Program-made: the position numbers and the translations under genes
Origin: Flavobacteriales bacterium
GTDB taxonomy: Bacteria; Bacteroidota; Bacteroidia; Flavobacteriales_F; PHOS-HE28
DNA: 64,000 nt
Assembly: GCA_023382455.1 (NCBI GenBank)
Contig: JAHDVX010000012.1
Span: forward strand, 44,519-108,518
Direction of reading: 5' to 3'
Shown: positions 3,001 to 21,331 of the stretch, piece after piece
Numbering within the stretch: the first letter of the stretch is position 1
Layout: each line of letters starts with the position of its first letter
Notes under the pieces: model-generated
What the model was told of the DNA's origin: nothing
Seen by the model: only the letters and a program-made list of their open reading frames with translations
Database searches by the model: none

Positions 3001-6000
3001 CCAGGTCACGGGGTCGCTCACGGCATTGCAGCTGCCGTTTCCGGCACTGGTCAGTGTAAGGGTCACGGTGCCCGCCGTGCGCTCCGCGGCCGTGGGCGTG
3101 TACACCGCATTCAGCGTGAAGTTGTTCGGGCTGTAAGTGCCCGCCCCGCCGCTCCACACGCCGCCGGTGGCGCCGCTGACGCTGCCGTTGAGGTTCATGG
3201 CGGGCGCATTGGCGCACACCGTGCCGTCCGTGCCGGCATTCACCACCGGGGCCGGGGTGAAGGTGATCACTTTGCTGTCGGCCACGGCATTGCAGTTGCC
3301 GTTGCCGGTGGTGGTGAGGGTGAGCGTCAAGGTGCCGCCCGCCAGCTCCGCCGGGGTGGGCGTGTAGGTGGCGTTCAGCGTGGTGTTGTTCGGGGTAAAG
3401 GAACCCAGGCCGCCGCTCCATACGCCGCCGGTGGCCACGGTCACGCTGCCGTTCAGCGCCACGTTGGCGTTGTTCACGCACACGCTGGCGTCCGTGCCGG
3501 CATTCACCGTGGGGGCGGGCGTGAAGTTCAAGGTCACCTGGTCGGTCACCGCCATGCAGTTGTTGTTGCCGGTGGTGGTGAGGGTGAGCGTCACGCTGCC
3601 GTTGGCGATCTCGGCAGCCGTGGGCGTGTAGGTGGCCGTGGGGCTGGTGGCGTTGGGGCTGAAGGTGCCCGCGCCGCCGCTCCACACCACGCCGGTGGCC
3701 AGCGTGAAGCTGCCGTTGAGCGTGGCCGCCGCATTGTTCGAGCAGATGTTCTGGTCCGCGCCCGCATTCACGGTGGGCGCCGGGGTGATGGTGTAGGTCA
3801 CCTGGTCGCTTACCGCGTTGCACAGGCCGTTGCCGGTGCTGGTGAGGGTGAGGGTCACCGTGCCGGCCGCGCGCTCGGCGGCGCTGGGGGTATAGGTGGC
3901 ATTCAGCGTGTTGGCGTTCGGGCTGTAGGTGCCGGTGCCGCCGCTCCAGGTGCCGCCGCTGGCGCCGGTCACGCTGCCGCCCAGGCTGATGCCGGGCATG
4001 TTGGCGCATACCGTGCCGTTGGTGCCGGCATCCACCACGGGGGCCGGGGTGAAGGAGATCGCCACTTGGTCGGTGACCGCGTTGCAGTTGCCGTTGCCCG
4101 TGGTGGTGAGGGTGAGCGTAAGGATGCCCGCATTGATCTCGGCAGGCGTCGGGGCGTAGGTGGCGTTCAGGGCCGTGTTGTTCGGGGTGTACGATCCCGC
4201 GCCGCCGCTCCACACGCCGCCGGTGGCGATGGCCACGCTTCCGTTCAGGGATACGTTCGCGTTGTTGGCGCAGCGCGTCATGTCCGCACCGGCATTGGCC
4301 GTGGGCGCTGCCGTGAAGTGCAGGGTTACCTGGTCGCTCACGGCGTTGCACAGGCCGTTGCCCGTGGTGGTGAGGGTGAGTGTGACGAAACCGGCCGCCA
4401 CCTCCGCCGCGGTGGGCGTGTAGGTGGCGTTCATGCTGGTGTTGCCGGGGCTGTAGCTGCCCGCGCCGCCGCTCCACACGCCGCCGGTGGCCACGGTGTA
4501 GCTGCCGGCCAGGGTGGCCACGGCGTTGTTGGAGCAAATGTTCTGGTCGGGTCCGGCGTTCACCGTGGGGGCAGGCGTGATGGTCCACGTCACTTGGTCG
4601 CTTACGGCGTTGCAGGTGCCGTTGCCCGCGCTGGTGAGCGTGAGGGTCGCGGTACCTGCGGTGATCTCGGCTGCCGTGGGCGTGTACACCGCGTTGAGCG
4701 TGGTGTTGTTCGGGCTGTAGGAGCCCGCGCCGCCGCTCCAGATGCCGCCGGTGGCGCCCGTGATGGTGCCATTGAGGTTCATGGCGGGGGCGTTGGCGCA
4801 AACGGAGGCGTCCGCACCGGCATTCACCACCGGTGCCGGGGTGAAGGTGATGGTGCGGCTGCTGGAGGCGGGCAGGCAGGTGCCGTTGCCCGTGGTGGTC
4901 AGGGTCAAGGTCACCTGGCCCGCGGCGATCTCACCGGCCGTGGGCGTGTAGGTGGCGTTCAGGGTGGTGTTGTTCGGGCTGTAAGTGCCCAGGCCGCCGC
5001 TCCAGGCGCCGCCGGTGGCCACGGTCACGCTGCCGTTCAGGGCGATGTCGGCGTTGTTGGCGCATACCGAGCTGTTGGCCCCGGCATTGGCCGTTGGCGC
5101 CGCCGTGAAGGTCAGCAGTACTTGGTCGCTCACGGCACTGCACAGGCCGTTGCCGGTGGTGGTGAGGGTGAGGGTGGCGCTACCGCTGGCGATCTCGGCC
5201 GCACTGGGCGTGTAGCTGGCGTTCATGTTGGTGGTGCTGGGGTCGAAGCTGCCCGCGCCGCCGCTCCACACGCCGCCGGTGGCCACGGTGAAGCTGCCGT
5301 TGAGGGTCACCTCGGCGTTGTTGCCGCATACGGTGCGGTCCAGGCCGGCATTCACCGTGGGGGCGGGCGTGATGGTCCAGGTCACCTGGTCGCTCACGGC
5401 GTTGCAGGTGCCGTTGCCGGCGCTGGTGAGCGTGAGGGTCACGGTGCCCGCGGCGATCTCGGCGGCCGTGGGCGTGTACACGGCATTCAAGGTGGCGTTG
5501 TTCGGGCTGTAGCTGCCCGCGCCGCCGCTCCAGATGCCGCCGGTGGCACCGGTGACGCTGCCGTTGAGGTTCATGGCGGGCGCGTTGGCACATACGGAGG
5601 CGTTCACGCCCGCATCCACGATGGGCGCCGGCGTGAAGGTGATGGTGCGGCTGCTGCTCACGGGCGTGCAGTTGCCGTTGCCCGTGGAGGTGAGGATCAG
5701 GGTGACGCTTCCTGCGGCGATCTCACCGGCGGTGGGCGTGTAGGTTGCCGTCAAGGAGGTATTGCCCGGGGTGAAGGTGCCCAAACCGCCGCTCCAAATA
5801 CCGCCCGTGGCGCCGGCCACGTTGCCGTTCAGTGCGATGGCCGCATTGTTGGCGCACACCGAGCTATTGGCCCCGGCGTTCACCGAGGGTGCCGCCGTGT
5901 AGGCGATCACCACTTGGTCCACCACGGCGGCGCAGTTGCCGTTGCCGGTGGTGGTCAAGGTCAAGGTCACCGACCCGTTGGCGATCTCCGCGGCCGTGGG

Positions 6001-7470: not shown

Positions 7471-8865
7471 CTTCCCGGAGAATTCCGAGAAGAAGCCGTA
7501 GCGGCAGCCCGATCCGGCCCCGCCGTTGATCACGCCCAGGGAGAACACGTCCGAGGTGTTGGTGATCACCAGGCCTTGGTTCACCGGAACTTCGGTGGTG
7601 TTGTATTGGATGTGTGCGGCCATCCATTCACCACCGGTGCCGGGTACGGTCACGAAGGCCGAACCGGGTATGGTGGCCGTGCCCGGACCGGTCACTACGA
7701 AGTCGTTCTCCGAGCCGCTTCGCACCAGCAGGTTCAGGAAGAAGCCCTCGTTGGTGGAGCGCGTGATTCCCACCTGCTGGCTGCCCGCGCAGTTCAGTGG
7801 TGGCAGGATGGCCATGCCCATCTCACAGCCGAAGCCGGTGACGTGTATGGCGTACACCGGCTTGGAAGCGCTCATGTAGGTGGCATTGTTCGTGGCGCCG
7901 CTCAGGTAGTCCATGTCGTGCCGGTAGTACTGGCCGGCAAAGAGCGTGGCCACCGGCGTGGGGTTCCCGTCGATGTAGATCTTGGTGTTGTTCTCAACGG
8001 CCATCAGGAACACGGATTCGTCACCCGTGGCATAGAGAGATCCTTTCACGGCGACATAGTCGGTACCCAGGATGTTCACCGGCACGATCTGGTCCATCAT
8101 CAGGTCGTAGCAGCCGCCGCTGGGGTTGTGGTCGCTGTCGTCCTTGATGGTGATGGCGATGGGCTTGTCCGCAAGCACGGCGGCACCCGAGGGGTGCTTG
8201 GTGGGGTCGGTGTAGGTGGCGTAGAGCGTGTTGGCACAGGAGTAGGTCTGGCCTCGGTTCAGGGTCACCACGAAGGGGACCAGGCCGGGATGGCCGTCCA
8301 CGTCCACCGGCGAATTGATGAGCACCGTGGTGTTGTCCTCCGTGGCCACGATGTCAAAGGAGGCGAAGGCCTTGTTCGCGTTGTTGCCGAAGTCGTGGTT
8401 GTGGAAGGGCGCGTGCTTGTGCAAGGGGATGTAGAACTCGGTGCCCAGGCCGTTGGCGCCTTTCAGGGCGACGATGTCCGGATTGTTCGTGTTGCTGCTC
8501 TCGTAGTAGCAGGTGATGTCCTCCGTGGAGGTGATGTGCAGGCCCGTGTTGCACACCGTGTTGGTCGGGCGGGTCTCCAACTGGGTCCGCAGGCTGGTCA
8601 TGTTATAGCGCACCGAGCTGTTGGCCGGCACGTTCAGCACGATGGGGCTTCCCCCGTTGAACCCCGGGTTCGCCGGCTGGGCAATGGTGACCACGGCCGC
8701 CGCGTTGCCCGCGGTCACGTTGAAGAAGATCGGTTCGTCGCCCGGGGTGTTGTGCAGACTGGTCACATCGGGGGGTGCCACCCAGAACTCGGTGCCGGTC
8801 TGGGCCAGCAACAGGTAGGGGAGGCATATGCTCAGAAGGACCTGGAGAAATCGCTTCTTGTTCAT
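1..8865 (-). CDS. Giant repetitive cell-surface protein (SprB / CHU-large-like adhesin), 5' end in window and C-terminus beyond window start. Signal peptide, ~470-aa N-terminal domain, then >=28 tandem ~88-aa Ig-like repeats
   Basis: Manual reverse-complement translation from the ATG at 8865-8863 (minus) is stop-free to position 1, ~2955 codons. N-terminus MNKKRFLQVLLSICLPYLLLAQ is a signal peptide. Repeats carry the motif PAPTVNAGPDQ.LCANN..LNGS.TVATGG.WSGG.G...P....LNATYTPTAAEIA.G.VTLTLTTTGNG.C. Not in the ORF track because there is no stop inside the window. The 2065-aa plus-strand ORF 322..6519 is its antisense artefact. Confidence 0.85.
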   Translation of the reverse strand, partial: MNKKRFLQVLLSICLPYLLLAQTGTEFWVAPPDVTSLHNTPGDEPIFFNVTAGNAAAVVTIAQPANPGFNGGSPIVLNVPANSSVRYNMTSLRTQLETRPTNTVCNTGLHITSTEDITCYYESSNTNNPDIVALKGANGLGTEFYIPLHKHAPFHNHDFGNNANKAFASFDIVATEDNTTVLINSPVDVDGHPGLVPFVVTLNRGQTYSCANTLYATYTDPTKHPSGAAVLADKPIAITIKDDSDHNPSGGCYDLMMDQIVPVNILGTDYVAVKGSLYATGDESVFLMAVENNTKIYIDGNPTPVATLFAGQYYRHDMDYLSGATNNATYMSASKPVYAIHVTGFGCEMGMAILPPLNCAGSQQVGITRSTNEGFFLNLLVRSGSENDFVVTGPGTATIPGSAFVTVPGTGGEWMAAHIQYNTTEVPVNQGLVITNTSDVFSLGVINGGAGSGCRYGFFSEFSGKIDVSAGTDQTLCAGESASLTGTVSGGSTTGIWTTTGSGVFQPSATALNATYEPSIGDIALGGVTLRLTSTGPCTPEFDEMILTLQPKPITNAGPDQQVCTSAPTVNLAGSVLNAVGGVWTGGANPFLPSNSNLNATYTPTAAELAAGSMWIYLTSTGNGVCSAVKDSLLVTFTPAPTVNAGPDQTLCANNPVASLNGTITVATGGIWSGGAGTFDPSTTNLHATYTPTATEIANGSVTLTLTTTGNGNCVVVSDQVLLNFTAAPTANAGANSSVCANNATIALNGSVTVATGGIWSGGTGTYNPNNTTLNATYTPSASEISNGSVTLTLTTTGNGNCLPATSSRTITFTPAPIVDAGTNGTVCANAAAISLNGSVTGATGGTWSGGTGTYSPNANSLTATYTPSAAEIAAGSVTLTLTTTGNGTCNPESDQVTYTITPAPTANAGANQTLCANNAVANLNGSFTIATGGVWSGGAGSFDPSTTNMAATYTPTAAEIANGSVTLTLTTTGNGNCAAVVDQVVIAYTAAPSVNAGANSSVCANNAAIALNGNVAGATGGIWSGGLGTFTPGNTSLTATYTPTAGEIAAGSVTLILTSTGNGNCTPVSSSRTITFTPAPIVDAGVNASVCANAPAMNLNGSVTGATGGIWSGGAGSYSPNNATLNAVYTPTAAEIAAGTVTLTLTSAGNGTCNAVSDQVTWTITPAPTVNAGLDRTVCGNNAEVTLNGSFTVATGGVWSGGAGSFDPSTTNMNASYTPSAAEIASGSATLTLTTTGNGLCSAVSDQVLLTFTAAPTANAGANSSVCANNADIALNGSVTVATGGAWSGGLGTYSPNNTTLNATYTPTAGEIAAGQVTLTLTTTGNGTCLPASSSRTITFTPAPVVNAGADASVCANAPAMNLNGTITGATGGIWSGGAGSYSPNNTTLNAVYTPTAAEITAGTATLTLTSAGNGTCNAVSDQVTWTITPAPTVNAGPDQNICSNNAVATLAGSYTVATGGVWSGGAGSYSPGNTSMNATYTPTAAEVAAGFVTLTLTTTGNGLCNAVSDQVTLHFTAAPTANAGADMTRCANNANVSLNGSVAIATGGVWSGGAGSYTPNNTALNATYAPTPAEINAGILTLTLTTTGNGNCNAVTDQVAISFTPAPVVDAGTNGTVCANMPGISLGGSVTGASGGTWSGGTGTYSPNANTLNATYTPSAAERAAGTVTLTLTSTGNGLCNAVSDQVTYTITPAPTVNAGADQNICSNNAAATLNGSFTLATGVVWSGGAGTFSPNATSPTATYTPTAAEIANGSVTLTLTTTGNNNCMAVTDQVTLNFTPAPTVNAGTDASVCVNNANVALNGSVTVATGGVWSGGLGSFTPNNTTLNATYTPTPAELAGGTLTLTLTTTGNGNCNAVADSKVITFTPAPVVNAGTDGTVCANAPAMNLNGSVSGATGGVWSGGAGTYSPNNFTLNAVYTPTAAERTAGTVTLTLTSAGNGSCNAVSDPVTWTITPAPTVNAGPDQSLCSNNPVATLAGSFTVATGAVWSGGAGSFSPDANNVNATYTPTASEVANGSVTLTLTTTGNNNCVAVSDQVTLTFTSAPTANAGADATVCANNASVALGGSVAVASGGIWSGGLGSYTPNNTALNATYAPTPAEINAGILTLTLTTTGNGNCLAVTDQKTITFTPAPVVDAGPNGTVCANLPAIPLNGSVTGAGGGTWTGAGTFSPDANTLNATYTPTAAEQAAGVVTLTLTSTNNGLCNAVSDQITWTITPAPTVNAGADQNICANNPTATLNGSFTLASGVVWTGGAGTFSPGATSPTATYTPTAAEIASGNLTLTLSTTGNNNCLAVSDQMTLHFTPAPVVNAGADVTLCVNNANVALNGAVSGATGGVWSGGAGSFSPNNTTLNATYTPTAAELAANTLTLTLTSTGNGNCLAVWDTKVINFTPAPTVDAGLNGTVCANNSAITLNGTVNGATGGIWSGGTGTYSPNSGTLNAVYTPSAAERTAGSVTLTLTTVGNGNCSAVSDQVSFTITPAPTANAGPDRSLCANNPDVTLSGAFTVATGGVWSGGNGTYNPGANNMSAVYTPTAAEIANGNVTLTLTTTGNGLCNAASDQVVLAFTDAPSANAGPDVTVCANNAAVALNGSVMIATGGTWSGGSGIFTPNANTLNATYTPSAADIAAGMVALTLTTTGNGTCTPATDTRIITYTPAPIVNAGTDGTVCANNAAISLNGSVNGATGGVWSGGSGSFSPNSITLNATYTPTAAEIAAGTVTLTLTSAGNGLCNAVSDQVTFTITPAPTVNAGADQSLCGNNANAVLNAAITVATGVQWSGGTGLYSPGSTAQNITYTPSAIEIANNSVTLTATTTGNNNCAAVSDNVTLTFTPAPMANAGPDQSVSQNNAATTLAGSYTIATGILWSGGAGTYNPNNTSPNAVYTPTAAEIAAGSVTLTLTTTGNGACAASSDQMTITFTDAPTADAGPDQTICANNASLVLSGSVTIAT

Positions 8866-17240: not shown

Positions 17241-19592
17241 CTACCGCACCACCATGATGCGCAGCACGCCGCCCGTGGCCGGGGCGCGCAACAGATAGCT
17301 GCCCGCGTCACGCATGCCGAGGTCCAGCGTGGTGTTGCCGTTCACCCGGCCGGTCCAAAGCATCCGGCCCGTGGCGTCGTGCAGCTCCAGGTCCGTGGGC
17401 GTGCTGCAGCGCACCGTGAGCACGCCGTTCGTCGGATTGGGGAAGGCCTCGAAAGCGGCGGGTGTGGCCGCCTCCTGCACGGAGGAAACCAGGTCGTTGT
17501 TGGCGTTAAAGGTGGGCGCCTGCTCCACGAAGGGGCCACTCCCGTTCGGCACGCGCGCGTAGCCCATGTCGGCATTGAGCGCACCGAACTGCACATGGTC
17601 CACCACAGCGCTGTCCGCGTTGACGAGCCACAGCTCCTCGCCGGCCGCGCTGAGCTTGAAGTTGGTGTGGTCCACGCCCTGCGATTGGTCCTCGTCCGCC
17701 CAGAAAATGAGGTAGCCGCCGGCCGGGATGGTGGTACCCTGGGGGATCGGCCACTTGAACAGGTTGGTGCCGTCGTCCGTGAGGAAACCGCCGCCCAGGT
17801 CCATGTCCGCCGCACCGCCGTTGTATAGTTCCAGCCAGTCATCGTACTCGCCGAAATTGTCGGCCACGGTGTTCGTGTTGCTGGCCATCAGCTCGTTGAT
17901 CACCACGGAGGTCGATGCGGTCTCCGCCTGCACGGTGTAGGCGTACACGTCGTGTTCGGCTCCCGGGGGCGCGTAGACCACGGATCGCGCCGCATTGTCG
18001 GCCACGGCCTCCACGTAGTAGCGCACCACCGTGTTGGGCCCGTAGGCGGGCAGCGTGGCGCCAAAGACGCCATCGTCGGCGGCGCCATCGCCGTGCAGGC
18101 CGTCGTCGGCCATGTCCGTCCGGGTGAAGGTGCCGTCGTAGCCCGTGCCGTGGTAAAGGCGCACGGCGAAGATCCCGTTGCTGCTGTTGACCGTGGCGCG
18201 CACTGCGGGCGTCTGCGTGGGCAGCGGCGCCTGCCATGCGGTGCCATCCACCATGTGCTCCACGGCCGTGATCTGGGGTGCCATCTGCGCCACCTCGGCA
18301 TTGCTCAACAGGTAGTTCCTTCGGTTGGAGATGAAGTTCTTCAGAACGTTCACCTCGGAGTTGAAGCTGCTGTAGCTGTACAGCTTCTTGGGGTCGGCCT
18401 GCACCTCGGCATCGATCAGGGCCACGTATCCGTCCACCAAGGCATTGAAGTTCAGGCTCTGCATCTTCTCGCTGATGATGGTGCGCAGGTGTGCCAGGTA
18501 GCGCTGCCGCCAGGCCGGTACCGCCAACAGGCGGTTGAGCAGCGGGTAGTTCGCGTCGTTCTGGTGGTAGAAGGGGCTCCAGTTCACCGCGTTGGATTTC
18601 ATCACGCTGTTGCCGTCGAACTCGTGCGGCACCATGCGGCCCGTCAGCGGCTCCCAGTACAGGTAGTAGTCCATCTTGCCCTTGTGCACGTAGCTGTCGT
18701 CGTCGCTGAAGGCGATCTCCGTGGCCAGGAACCACAGCGTGCGGTCGATGTCCAGGTATTTCGGCAGGCTGTCGGCCAGCTGTGCCTGGGGCAGCCCCTC
18801 CAGCTTTTGGCAGGTGCGCACCAGCGCCTCCCATGGATTGCTGTCCAGGTCCGTTCCTTTGAGGGTGTAGTAGGTCTGGTAGTCGGTGGTGTCCGGCCCC
18901 AGGTCGTTCAGGGCCGCGGTGCCGTCACCCCATTGCCCGCCGGGGCCGGGGCCGCCGCCCGTCTGGCCGTCCGGCCGGTCGGCGCGCCAGCGGTGCCCGT
19001 CATTGCTCAGGAACCATTCCGAGATGAAATCCTTGTTCAGCTGCTGCACATTGGGGTAGAGTCCCCAGCTGGCGCCGTTGATGTTCAGGTGCACGAAGTT
19101 GGCCTTGGCCGCCGGCACATGGTCGCGGATCAGCTCCAGGTACACCACCTCGCGCAGGAAGGACGGGTCCTGGAAGGCGTTGTTCAGGTTCAGGGTCTCG
19201 TAGCCCATCAGCTCCTGGTCCGGGTCCGTGTGGTCCAGCGTGATGTTGAAGGAGGTCTTCTGCGCGCCGTTGGGCAGCATGAAATAGCTGGTCTGCCCCT
19301 TGAAGCGCACGCCCACGCTGTCGTATACCGTGCCGTCCACGGTCAATGTGGCCGGGATGTCCGTCTGGTTCTGGTAGTTCTGCTGCAGCAGCTGCCAATA
19401 GTTGGCCTGGCCGAACTGCAGGTCCAGTGTGCGGATGGTCGGCTTCTCATAGAGCCCCGTGCTGGGCTGGCCCCCCAGCAGAAGCAGGTGCCCATCGGCG
19501 CTGTAGTACTGTTCCGGCGGCATGCTTTGGGCAAAAGCGCCGGTAAGCGGCAAGGAGGCCAGCAACAGGGTGAGGGTGCGATACTGGGGCAT
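17241..19592 (-). CDS. CotH-family (atypical kinase fold) protein with lamin-tail domain and T9SS C-terminal sorting domain
   Basis: Signal MPQYRTLTLLLASLPLTGAFAQ; CotH-like core; LTD segment VINELMASN...DDWLELYN; tail FPNPTNGVLTVRC...GSYLLRAPATGGVLRIMVVR. Confidence 0.75.
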   Translation of the reverse strand: MPQYRTLTLLLASLPLTGAFAQSMPPEQYYSADGHLLLLGGQPSTGLYEKPTIRTLDLQFGQANYWQLLQQNYQNQTDIPATLTVDGTVYDSVGVRFKGQTSYFMLPNGAQKTSFNITLDHTDPDQELMGYETLNLNNAFQDPSFLREVVYLELIRDHVPAAKANFVHLNINGASWGLYPNVQQLNKDFISEWFLSNDGHRWRADRPDGQTGGGPGPGGQWGDGTAALNDLGPDTTDYQTYYTLKGTDLDSNPWEALVRTCQKLEGLPQAQLADSLPKYLDIDRTLWFLATEIAFSDDDSYVHKGKMDYYLYWEPLTGRMVPHEFDGNSVMKSNAVNWSPFYHQNDANYPLLNRLLAVPAWRQRYLAHLRTIISEKMQSLNFNALVDGYVALIDAEVQADPKKLYSYSSFNSEVNVLKNFISNRRNYLLSNAEVAQMAPQITAVEHMVDGTAWQAPLPTQTPAVRATVNSSNGIFAVRLYHGTGYDGTFTRTDMADDGLHGDGAADDGVFGATLPAYGPNTVVRYYVEAVADNAARSVVYAPPGAEHDVYAYTVQAETASTSVVINELMASNTNTVADNFGEYDDWLELYNGGAADMDLGGGFLTDDGTNLFKWPIPQGTTIPAGGYLIFWADEDQSQGVDHTNFKLSAAGEELWLVNADSAVVDHVQFGALNADMGYARVPNGSGPFVEQAPTFNANNDLVSSVQEAATPAAFEAFPNPTNGVLTVRCSTPTDLELHDATGRMLWTGRVNGNTTLDLGMRDAGSYLLRAPATGGVLRIMVVR

Positions 19593-19699
19593 GGTCGGTG
19601 AATTGGAGCCCCGTTGCGGGGATATGCGCTACAGGATCGGACGCCAACTTGCGGCGATGGTTTGATCCGTGCCATGAACCACAACGTTCCCCGTGATCA

Positions 19700-20073
19700 A
19701 TAATGGGACCAGGGTCCCACTCTGGCGCGAGCGTCCTCCGCTCGTGCCTCTCGCCGGCTTGCCTCTACGTCTCATCGCATTCAAACCCCAGTTGCGAATT
19801 GGCACTGCTCCACATATAGGCCGTTTCATCGGTGACCAAGCCTGCGCGTAATGGATGCTCGCGAAGGTAGCGCCTCCGCTGCTCAAGCAGCTCCGTAGAA
19901 TGGCACGAGCGCCCTTTGCCCAATTGCTTCTACGCCTCATCGTATTCAAACCCCGGATGCGGAATGGCACTGCTCCACATATAGGCCGTTTCATCGGTGA
20001 CCAAGCCTGCGCGTAATGGATTCTCGCGAGGGTAGCGTCTCCGCTGCTCAAGCAGCTCCGTTGAATGGCACGT
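19700..20073. repeat. Non-coding element bounded by 14-bp terminal inverted repeats (CTGGCGCGAGCGTC / GACGCTCGCGCCAG) containing two ~160-bp tandem copies (~90% identical)
   Basis: Unit 1 ~19751-19902, unit 2 ~19914-20073. Each has an internal palindrome GCTGCTCAAGCAGC. The only ORF (19629..20051) is just a translation of the repeat. Confidence 0.7.
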
Positions 20074-20344
20074 GCGGAAGACGCTCGCGCCAGTTTTGGG
20101 GCGGACCCATGACCGATGTTATTGAACCACCGGATCCGGAAGTGAGCCCAAGGCTCGCCGACGCCCCCCGGCTATGCATCCGCGCCCTCGTTGCCTTGCG
20201 GTTCCGGCAAGTTCACCACCTTGCATTCGGGGTACATGCCGCCCGGTGCCCCATGAAGCATGGCTCGGTTGTCGTGCACGGCGCCGTGGATCCGGTACAC
20301 CGCGATGCGGCATGCGGGCATTGGCCGTACGCTCCTTGCCGCGA

Positions 20345-21331
20345 CTACGGCGTGAACGTGAAGCTGTAAGAGACCAACGTGCCGGAGATGCTCAGTGTAT
20401 AGAATCCCGGCTGCATGCTCACGGGGTTCACCACGAGGAAGGCTTCGTTCGGATAGCCGCCCACGCCCAAGGTGCCCGTGGCCGGGGAAGGCCCGCTGAG
20501 GGCCCATGGCTGGGTGCTGTGCAGATACCGACCGAAGACCCGGAAGTTGAGCACCTGCCCTCCGCTGTTCATTGCACTGATGCTGAAGGTGTTCCCACCG
20601 CCGAGGAGCTCCATGCCCTGCACCCGCATGTCCGGCGTGGGTGCGAACGCGATCGTGAGCGTGTCCGAGCGCCCGTCGGCATTGGTGGCGCTCAACAAGG
20701 CGCTCTCCACGGTGGCTTCATCCGTACCGCTGGCGAAAATGAGCGGGATACGGAAGCCGATGGTGCAATAGAAGCCCGAGTCCAATGCGAACGGACCGGG
20801 TATGACCTGGCCGTTCAAGCTCATGCTCATGCCGGTCAGCGTGGCACCAGTCAGATTGAACAGCACACTGTCGCCGGCCCGCGCGGGCTGACCGGAGAAT
20901 ATCTGGTCCAGGTTGTCCTCGAGGTGCATCAGGTTGAAGGGCCGTTTCCAGTACATGTACGGCACGGTGTCCGCAGATGTCCCGCTGTTGACGAACACGG
21001 CACTGTAACCACCGGTGAACGGCGCCCACCCGGCGGGAGGCTGCACCACGAGTTGCGTCGTGCTCACGCTCAGCACGTTGAAGGCTTGGTTATTTGAGGT
21101 GACCGTGTTCTGGACGAGGTCGGTGTTGAAAGGGCCTCCGGTGAAGGTGATCACCTCATCGGGATAGGGCTTGAGTGGGCTCCAGCTTGTGATCAGTCCG
21201 TTGCTGCCGGGACCTGGGCCGGTGCCGCCCCCACCCGGGGATGGCCCGTTGTCCGTATCCTTCTTGCACGCTTGATGAAGCAGGACGAGCGCGATGAGCG
21301 CCAACCGGGAGGTCCGTGTGATGAGGTTCAT
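20345..21331 (-). CDS. Hypothetical lipoprotein (signal peptide + Cys; Gly-rich linker)
   Basis: Start at the ATG encoding MNLITRTSRLALIALVLLHQAC, not the upstream Arg-rich extension of the track ORF. Confidence 0.6.
   Translation of the reverse strand: MNLITRTSRLALIALVLLHQACKKDTDNGPSPGGGGTGPGPGSNGLITSWSPLKPYPDEVITFTGGPFNTDLVQNTVTSNNQAFNVLSVSTTQLVVQPPAGWAPFTGGYSAVFVNSGTSADTVPYMYWKRPFNLMHLEDNLDQIFSGQPARAGDSVLFNLTGATLTGMSMSLNGQVIPGPFALDSGFYCTIGFRIPLIFASGTDEATVESALLSATNADGRSDTLTIAFAPTPDMRVQGMELLGGGNTFSISAMNSGGQVLNFRVFGRYLHSTQPWALSGPSPATGTLGVGGYPNEAFLVVNPVSMQPGFYTLSISGTLVSYSFTFTP

Follow-up and report, generated by a model that had tools for sequence, protein, structure and literature searches.

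Movement of REP and REPIN elements is attributed to a REP-associated tyrosine transposase (RAYT) that acts on them as single-stranded DNA. Palindrome-associated elements (PATEs) are miniature derivatives of IS200/IS605. A RAYT (TnpA-REP) gene flanked by inverted REPs constitutes a REPtron, and a REP doublet that forms a hairpin is a REPIN (Bertels & Rainey 2011, PMC3116915). The proteins of TnpA-Y1 subclass 2.6 have a mean length of 179 aa and a Y-motif with the consensus YIH[QN]NP (Quentin et al. 2018, PMC6006769); this subclass equals RAYT group 5 (Bertels et al. 2017, PMC5581495). The REP/RAYT hairpins of Bacteroidota have been termed 'atypical' and were identified by hand (PMC6006769).

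Here we analysed a stretch of 64,000 nucleotides (the window) that carries a short repeat between a CotH gene and a lipoprotein-like gene. We found that the repeat is very probably a decayed RAYT gene, of which the last 42 codons are doubled in tandem and bracketed by two inverted REP hairpins. The element derives from a REP/RAYT unit, within the IS200/IS605 (Y1 HUH transposase) superfamily, and the described system that fits it best is the REPtron of TnpA-Y1 subclass 2.6. We are fairly confident that it is an ordinary fossil of this known system, and neither a new RNA nor a classical MITE.

The initial annotation had described 14-bp terminal inverted repeats enclosing two ~160-bp units of ~90% identity, an internal palindrome in each unit, and further imperfect inverted repeats (cgctcgtgcc / ggcacgagcg), all situated between the CotH gene and a lipoprotein gene. 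Each of these features is present and the flanking genes are as it said, but its coordinates were off by ~20-22 nt; the terminal repeats, which are indeed exact, do not lie at 19700-19713 and 20060-20073 but at the positions given in Table 1. The units have a period of 165 nt, which equals 55 codons, and are 89% identical in a repeat search and 92% by TRF. The palindrome occurs in both, and the imperfect repeats were located at five sites, three of them with one mismatch. By a rough estimate, a perfect 14-nt inverted repeat inside ~400 nt has an expectation of ~3e-4, and the repeat features of the element are not a product of chance. Searching the region against the window with blastn revealed no further copy of the unit in the 64 kb, and scanning the window with up to three substitutions allowed (<=3) revealed no further REP hairpin. 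Within the window, the 10-nt hairpin arm occurs outside the element no more frequently than expected by chance.

Table 1 Coordinates of the repeat element, its parts and the neighbouring genes in the window.
Feature	Position	Strand	Sequence or extent	Remark
Whole element	19722-20093		372 bp	
14-nt inverted repeat, left arm	19722-19735		CTGGCGCGAGCGTC	contained in left REP hairpin
14-nt inverted repeat, right arm	20080-20093		GACGCTCGCGCCAG	exact reverse complement of left arm; contained in right REP hairpin
Extended inverted repeat	19722-19757 / 20058-20093		36 nt, 83% complementarity	repeat search
Tandem duplication	19746-20075		2 x 165 nt: 19746-19910 + 19911-20075	18 differences
Tandem repeat by TRF	19759-20076		1.9 copies	92% matches, no indels, score 552
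Internal palindrome	19878-19891; second copy 20043-20056		GCTGCTCAAGCAGC	codons E-L-L-E-Q just past deletion breakpoint
Arms cgctcgtgcc / ggcacgagcg	19739-19748, 19902-19911			
Arms cgctcgtgcc / ggcacgagcg	19724-19733, 20067-20076, 20082-20091			one mismatch
Left REP hairpin	19722-19748		+ strand CT-GGCGCGAGCG-TCCTC-CGCTCGTGCC	3' of remnant in gene sense; 10-bp stem, one G.T wobble
Unit junction	19902-19913		GGCACGAGCGCC on + strand, GGCGCTCGTGCC in gene sense	putative collapsed REP hairpin, minus apical 13 nt
Right REP hairpin	20067-20093		+ strand GGCACGTGCG-GAAGA-CGCTCGCGCC-AG	5' of remnant in gene sense; degenerate
RAYT fragment copy 1	19765-19893	-	codons 135-176 ELLEQRRRYLREHPLRAGLVTDETAYMWSSANSQLGFECDET at 19768-19893, stop 19765-19767	downstream copy in gene sense
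RAYT fragment copy 2	19930-20058	-	codons 135-176 ELLEQRRRYPRENPLRAGLVTDETAYMWSSAIPHPGFEYDEA at 19933-20058, stop 19930-19932	upstream copy in gene sense
CotH gene	17241-19592	-		
TIG-domain lipoprotein-like gene	ends 20345	-		
49-aa called ORF	20172-20321	-	MPACRIAVYRIHGAVHDNRAMLHGAPGGMYPECKVVNLPEPQGNEGADA	between lipoprotein-like gene and element; L127 2272-2421 in NCBI record

Three observations concern the borders of the element. A perfect small palindrome, GGGACC-AG-GGTCCC, occupies 19706-19719, directly outside the left hairpin. After CCAG, the sequence [A/T]GTGGG is common to the window and to the 3' flanks in L084, L061 and L136, three of the related loci described below, which suggests that the conserved element reaches a few nucleotides past the 14-nt inverted repeat. 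On the other side, we tested a possible third, degenerate hairpin at 20140-20165, because relatives carry upstream hairpin arrays spaced 55-58 nt; it folded no better than shuffled sequence (z -0.2 and -0.8) and was rejected.

The coding ancestry of the element is visible on the minus strand. The initial annotation had seen no credible ORF and had dismissed 19629..20051 as a mere repeat translation. The first of these statements stands in a functional sense, but it overlooked that the unit is a fragment of a coding sequence; the second gives way to a different minus-strand frame, which carries a recognisable protein-coding remnant. Read twice, this frame gives ...ELLEQRRRY[L/P]RE[H/N]PLRAGLVTDETAYMWSS...stop, and it resembles the C-terminus of RAYT. 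Using the 176-aa RAYT from L084 as a tblastn query against the window, we recovered copy 1 at 19774-19893 (aa 135-174, 85% identity, E 1.6e-17) and copy 2 at 19933-20058 (aa 135-176, 76% identity, E 2.7e-14), and no match in the window beyond these two fragments. Taken alone, each copy matched NCBIfam NF047646 weakly and at the end of the profile (copy 1, positions 115-146 of 146, E 0.05; copy 2, positions 114-146 of 146, E 0.023). With the 52-aa and 59-aa translations, Pfam searches produced no useful match; the sole hit, to IPT at E 0.098, was spurious.

DNA alignment with L084, L124 and L001 revealed that hairpin, flank, gene 3' end and hairpin are colinear, with one clean internal gap. In gene sense, the 5' REP hairpin comes first; ~7 nt of 5' flank separate it from codons 135-176 and their stop, and another ~20 nt, the 3' flank, separate the stop from the 3' REP hairpin. 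The ~7-nt flank reads ATTC[A/T]AC, as in L001, and the gene resumes at about codon 134 after the gap. This internal deletion of ~440 bp took away the start codon, the HUH motif and about two thirds to 75% of the gene, and left a mini element of ~190 bp that is present as a tandem dimer with the 165-nt period. The intact catalytic core is absent: the HUH motif (NHLH, near residue 58) was deleted, and the Tyr-motif region is kept as RRRY[L/P]RE[H/N]P. With only codons 135-176 left, the remnant is a pseudogene fragment and not a functional member of the RAYT family, and because the catalytic HUH half is missing from the window, its family assignment rests on 42 residues and the flanking hairpins. 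The element contains no intact ORF and the 64-kb window no Y1 gene, so the element does not qualify as an autonomous IS200/IS605 element.

The 'terminal inverted repeats' of the element are the two REP hairpins. As single-stranded DNA, the left hairpin is intact and folds at -12.3 kcal/mol (z = -5.5); the right hairpin folds at -8.7 kcal/mol (z = -2.6). The junction between the units, in the context ...AAAGG-GCGCTCGTGCC-ATTC..., no longer folds (-2.1 kcal/mol, z = +0.66), and we infer from its sequence that it was a full hairpin before an apical deletion. The hairpin on the left of the element also stands 3' of full-length or partial genes in L001, L084, L124 and L061, and the right hairpin is homologous to the hairpin upstream of the genes in L084, L124 and L061. 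The remnant is thus bracketed as in a REPtron, by inverted hairpins homologous to those around the L084 and L111 genes and the partial gene of L001.

A protein search yielded one relative, P0001, at locus L001. This closest relative is itself a decayed gene: its HUH motif (NHLHLI) is present, a stop codon interrupts the frame and part of the interior is deleted. Downstream of the gene lies GGCACGAGCGTGGACGCTCGCGCCAG and upstream of it ...GCGTCCACGCTCGTGCC, both of which are the sequences of the window's terminal inverted repeat. An IS110-family element of ~1.33 kb sits within the 5' arm of the REP hairpin upstream of the decayed RAYT in L001 (3403-3414 and 4747-4766), so that the hairpin is divided into CTTCTGGCGCGAGAG on one side of IS110 and AAGCGTCCACGCTCGTGCC on the other; the IS110 gene (3562-4572) matches PF01548 and PF02371, and the insertion is also found in L002-L004. 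Some IS110-family elements prefer REP sequences as insertion sites, and the position of the L001 insertion fits this preference.

We then scanned one genome per species for the hairpin pattern GGCACGAGCG-N3-6-CGCTCGYGCC, which gave at least 120 stretches (L007-L126); the matches listed came mainly from Bacteroidota, Terriglobia and Pasteurellaceae. Nearly all of the listed hairpins carry the asymmetric A..C form, equivalent to a G.T wobble on the other strand. Among the matches listed, the G.T wobble at stem position 4 of GGCGCGAGCG-N3-5-CGCTCGTGCC was almost always retained. For REP systems, such conservation of a single REP sequence across phyla is unusual. The loci from Terriglobia/Acidobacteriota have only distant RAYT-like genes (L076 305-910 and L107 7109-7720, ~25-28% identity to the L084 protein). 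A relaxed re-scan found the hairpin as singlets, as many inverted left-right doublets 6-150 nt apart and as tandem arrays. At this relaxed stringency 47/64 double changes keep pairing, a count that lends weak support to compensatory change because the relaxed set includes chance GC-rich matches. A literature search for the hairpin 10-mers retrieved only unrelated primer sequences.

In other Bacteroidota, the hairpins flank full-length genes of this family. Where inverted hairpins ~600 bp apart enclose a gene, its product has 176 aa; such loci were found in L084 (twice), L028 (twice), L105 and L111. In L124, three tandem left hairpins with 58-bp spacing precede the gene and one right hairpin follows it, and hairpin arrays also occur in L035. 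The L084 protein matched NCBIfam NF047646 REP_Tyr_transpos with 85.3 bits (cutoff 80) and Pfam PF01797 Y1_Tnp with 27.8 bits (cutoff 23), and source records give its homologues names such as 'REP-associated tyrosine transposase' and 'RayT'. A PDB sequence search with a full-length relative returned nothing at E <= 0.01.

Related minis occur in other genomes. In the L061/L134 lineage and in L136, a hairpin, the gene 3' end and a second hairpin are arranged as in the window, within unrelated flanking DNA, and the breakpoints on both sides lie within a few nucleotides of the window's. Such breakpoints hint that a single founding deletion has spread, or else that a mechanistic hot spot exists. Identity among the minis of L061, L134 and L136 is 69-81%, and a derived motif common to them is absent from the window. 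In the identity matrix, the window copies reach 75-78% with L084 and L001 but 69-73% with the other minis. The minis are therefore not an exclusive clade and their deletions may be independent; the matrix would fit independent deletions, and equally one origin after which unconstrained copies drifted faster.

Duplication has also recurred. The L134 mini (8393-8685) carries its own tandem duplication, 149-bp x 2 with 97% identity, at a junction that differs from the window's and has GGCA microhomology. L061, a 98%-identical relative of L134, is single copy. The L134 duplication therefore appears to be independent, and such duplications recur, which would support a structural propensity of these minis to duplicate. 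In the second copy of L134 the hairpin loop is flipped (TGGA has become TCCA), suggesting that left-type and right-type hairpins have exchanged. For the window, the dimer may have arisen as follows. The left and right hairpins are palindromic and hence near-identical as direct repeats too; if unequal exchange or replication slippage took place between them, a tandem dimer would result, and the hybrid hairpin at the junction would then lose its apex to give GGCGC-TCGTGCC. The junction sequence is consistent with this origin by hairpin exchange or slippage plus apex loss.

Several explanations of the element other than a decayed RAYT gene were considered. That it is a MITE-like mobile remnant, as the initial annotation proposed, holds in spirit, since it is a mobile-element remnant of the REP/RAYT kind, but not in the classical sense, which requires a DDE-transposase insertion sequence shortened by deletion and possessing both terminal inverted repeats and a target-site duplication. 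Its small size, its non-coding content and its exact 14-nt terminal inverted repeats would suit such a MITE; its ends, however, are stem-loops identical to the REP hairpins around RAYT genes rather than DDE-type terminal inverted repeats, its interior is homologous to a Y1 transposase gene and not to a DDE transposase gene, and the 64 kb hold no second copy. A target-site duplication, for which the initial annotation had advised looking, was not seen in the flanks: the element (CTGG...CCAG) follows ...GGTCCCACT and precedes TTTTGGGG..., and CCCACT and TTTTGG form no direct repeat. The stem-loop ends, the Y1-derived interior and the absence of a target-site duplication contradict a classical MITE, and we consider this reading extremely improbable. 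A pair of structured small RNAs, its second proposal, or a cis-regulatory RNA leader of the CotH gene, would accommodate the hairpins and palindromes, as well as the place of the element in a 750-nt gap upstream of CotH in the same orientation as both flanking genes. Rfam, however, returned no match at E <= 1 for 19400-20500, and the element has no sigma-70-like promoter and no intrinsic terminator. The covariation check that had been suggested turned out unfavourable, with an RNAalifold term of +1.4 on five related minis and double changes in only 4/44 pairs. The internal palindrome, judged by its E-L-L-E-Q codons, is coding-derived, and it is not kept in the related minis. CotH orthologues of 76-80% identity lack such an element and have upstream regions of 100-130 nt, and coding ancestry fully accounts for the sequence conservation. 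An RNA function is thus highly unlikely. Nor is the unit probably a functional micro-gene for a truncated RAYT C-terminal peptide, a reading that has in its favour a 52-codon frame (19765-19923, minus strand) open from a TTG in one unit. That TTG is the only start codon of copy 1, and copy 2 has none. The two copies differ at nine codons, eight nonsynonymously and one synonymously, which marks a pseudogene, and they drifted apart neutrally. The fragment lacks the HUH motif, and neither the NCBI record (GCA_048500375.1, contig JASNYC010000003.1) nor the protein collection has a called gene here; we give a peptide-coding role almost no credence.

The remaining alternative accepts the RAYT origin and differs in regarding the element as active: a mini-REPtron, similar to a REPIN with a long spacer, that a RAYT acting in trans moves as single-stranded DNA through the two inverted hairpins. 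Under this reading the common breakpoints would mark either the founding deletion or RAYT cleavage sites. The minis of L061/L134 and L136 speak for it through their same architecture, their near-matching breakpoints and their unrelated flanks, and passive decay in situ does not predict that breakpoints should nearly match across genomes. When the whole element is folded as single-stranded DNA, its terminal 36-nt arms pair with each other in the minimum-free-energy structure (z = -3.4). Six independent short-read assemblies with an identical CotH gene (Logan contigs L128-L133) end in the left hairpin, at 19744/19745, as repeated or polymorphic sequence would; assembly breaks at hairpins also arise technically, however, and the long NCBI contig reads through. 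Against activity, no further copy of the unit or hairpin exists in the 64 kb, unlike in REP-rich genomes, a strict-pattern scan of a metagenome collection produced only two further minis, of the hairpins in the element the right one is degenerate and the one at the junction destroyed, and the window copies are nearer to L001 and L084 than to other minis. We therefore regard an active mini-REPtron as unlikely. Current or recent mobilisation of the element in trans is similarly doubtful. The locus gives no sign of current movement, or of regulation of the CotH gene 130 nt downstream. A RAYT supplied in trans could still bind the intact left hairpin, or cut it, as single-stranded DNA. The element today encodes nothing and is most likely inert.

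A broader form of the same idea is that the hairpin, the last 42 codons and the second hairpin together form a propagating non-autonomous RAYT derivative, between a REPtron and a REPIN. We put this forward only tentatively and think it rather improbable. RAYT cleavage would then have set the breakpoints in at least two to three diverged lineages, with one cut 5-8 nt beyond the 3' side of the upstream hairpin and another at a pseudo-site near codon 134, and the tandem dimers that recur would be side products of strand exchange directed by the hairpins. If true, such a mini would be direct sequence evidence for the birth of REPINs from the flanks of their own transposase gene, and RAYT units, which are usually regarded as immobile single-copy genes, could spawn mobile deletion derivatives.

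The region upstream of the CotH gene was also compared across its orthologues in L137, L138 and L140. These have other upstream genes, for a formyltransferase or an amidohydrolase, and their homology to the window ends ~100 nt upstream of the CotH start codon, so that the pre-insertion site could not be reconstructed. Within the homologous part, GATCAAACC, followed ~10 nt on by T.GG.GTC, stands 70-85 nt upstream of the CotH start (window ~19655-19690, minus strand). It is conserved in the window and in all three orthologous loci despite the differing upstream genes, and may be a promoter or regulatory site for CotH.

These findings bear on annotation and on the description of REP/RAYT systems. 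The 372-bp repeat upstream of CotH can be labelled as a RAYT pseudogene with REP hairpins, rather than as a small RNA or a new MITE. The REP/RAYT systems of Bacteroidota are poorly described, and the analysis spells out a consensus for their hairpins, CTGG-CGCGAGCG / CGCTCGTG-CC, in which a G.T wobble is conserved. It also documents internally deleted RAYT units with breakpoints within a few nucleotides of each other across different genomes, and the recurrent tandem duplication of such units. The interest of the recurrent mini-REPtron architecture and of the duplications is modest. If the minis are mobilised, they would illustrate a proposed route from transposase-flanking repeats to REPINs.

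How the element compares with known systems can be stated for each in turn. It is like a PATE in that an internal deletion has left both subterminal hairpin ends of a Y1-transposase element in place and no target-site duplication is present; it differs in its parent, a RAYT-type gene rather than an IS200 transposase, and such genes are usually domesticated and present in single copy. With REPINs it has in common that it is non-autonomous and would need a RAYT in trans, and short-spacer doublets (6-150 nt) of its hairpin are common in related genomes. Unlike a REPIN, it has a spacer of 318 nt (~150 nt per unit) that consists of RAYT coding sequence, and one of its REPs is degenerate. The 64-kb window contains one copy of the element. 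The full-length relatives fit TnpA-Y1 subclass 2.6, or RAYT group 5, by their described features: a length of 176 aa against the mean of 179, the HUH motif NHLH, a WQ motif (FWQQ), a Y-motif of the Y..xNP type (RYLRENP), a mostly Bacteroidota distribution, and inverted flanking hairpins without the canonical GT[AG]G foot and with further copies in the genome. They depart from the subclass in that the Y-motif is YLRENP and not YIH[QN]NP. The window copy, for its part, has lost ~75% of the gene including the HUH motif, is tandemly duplicated, and has no other REP in its 64 kb, whereas dispersed copies are present in related genomes. It nevertheless retains both hairpins and the gene 3' end of a REPtron, and it belongs to the known REP/RAYT kind as a decayed, dimerised mini-REPtron.
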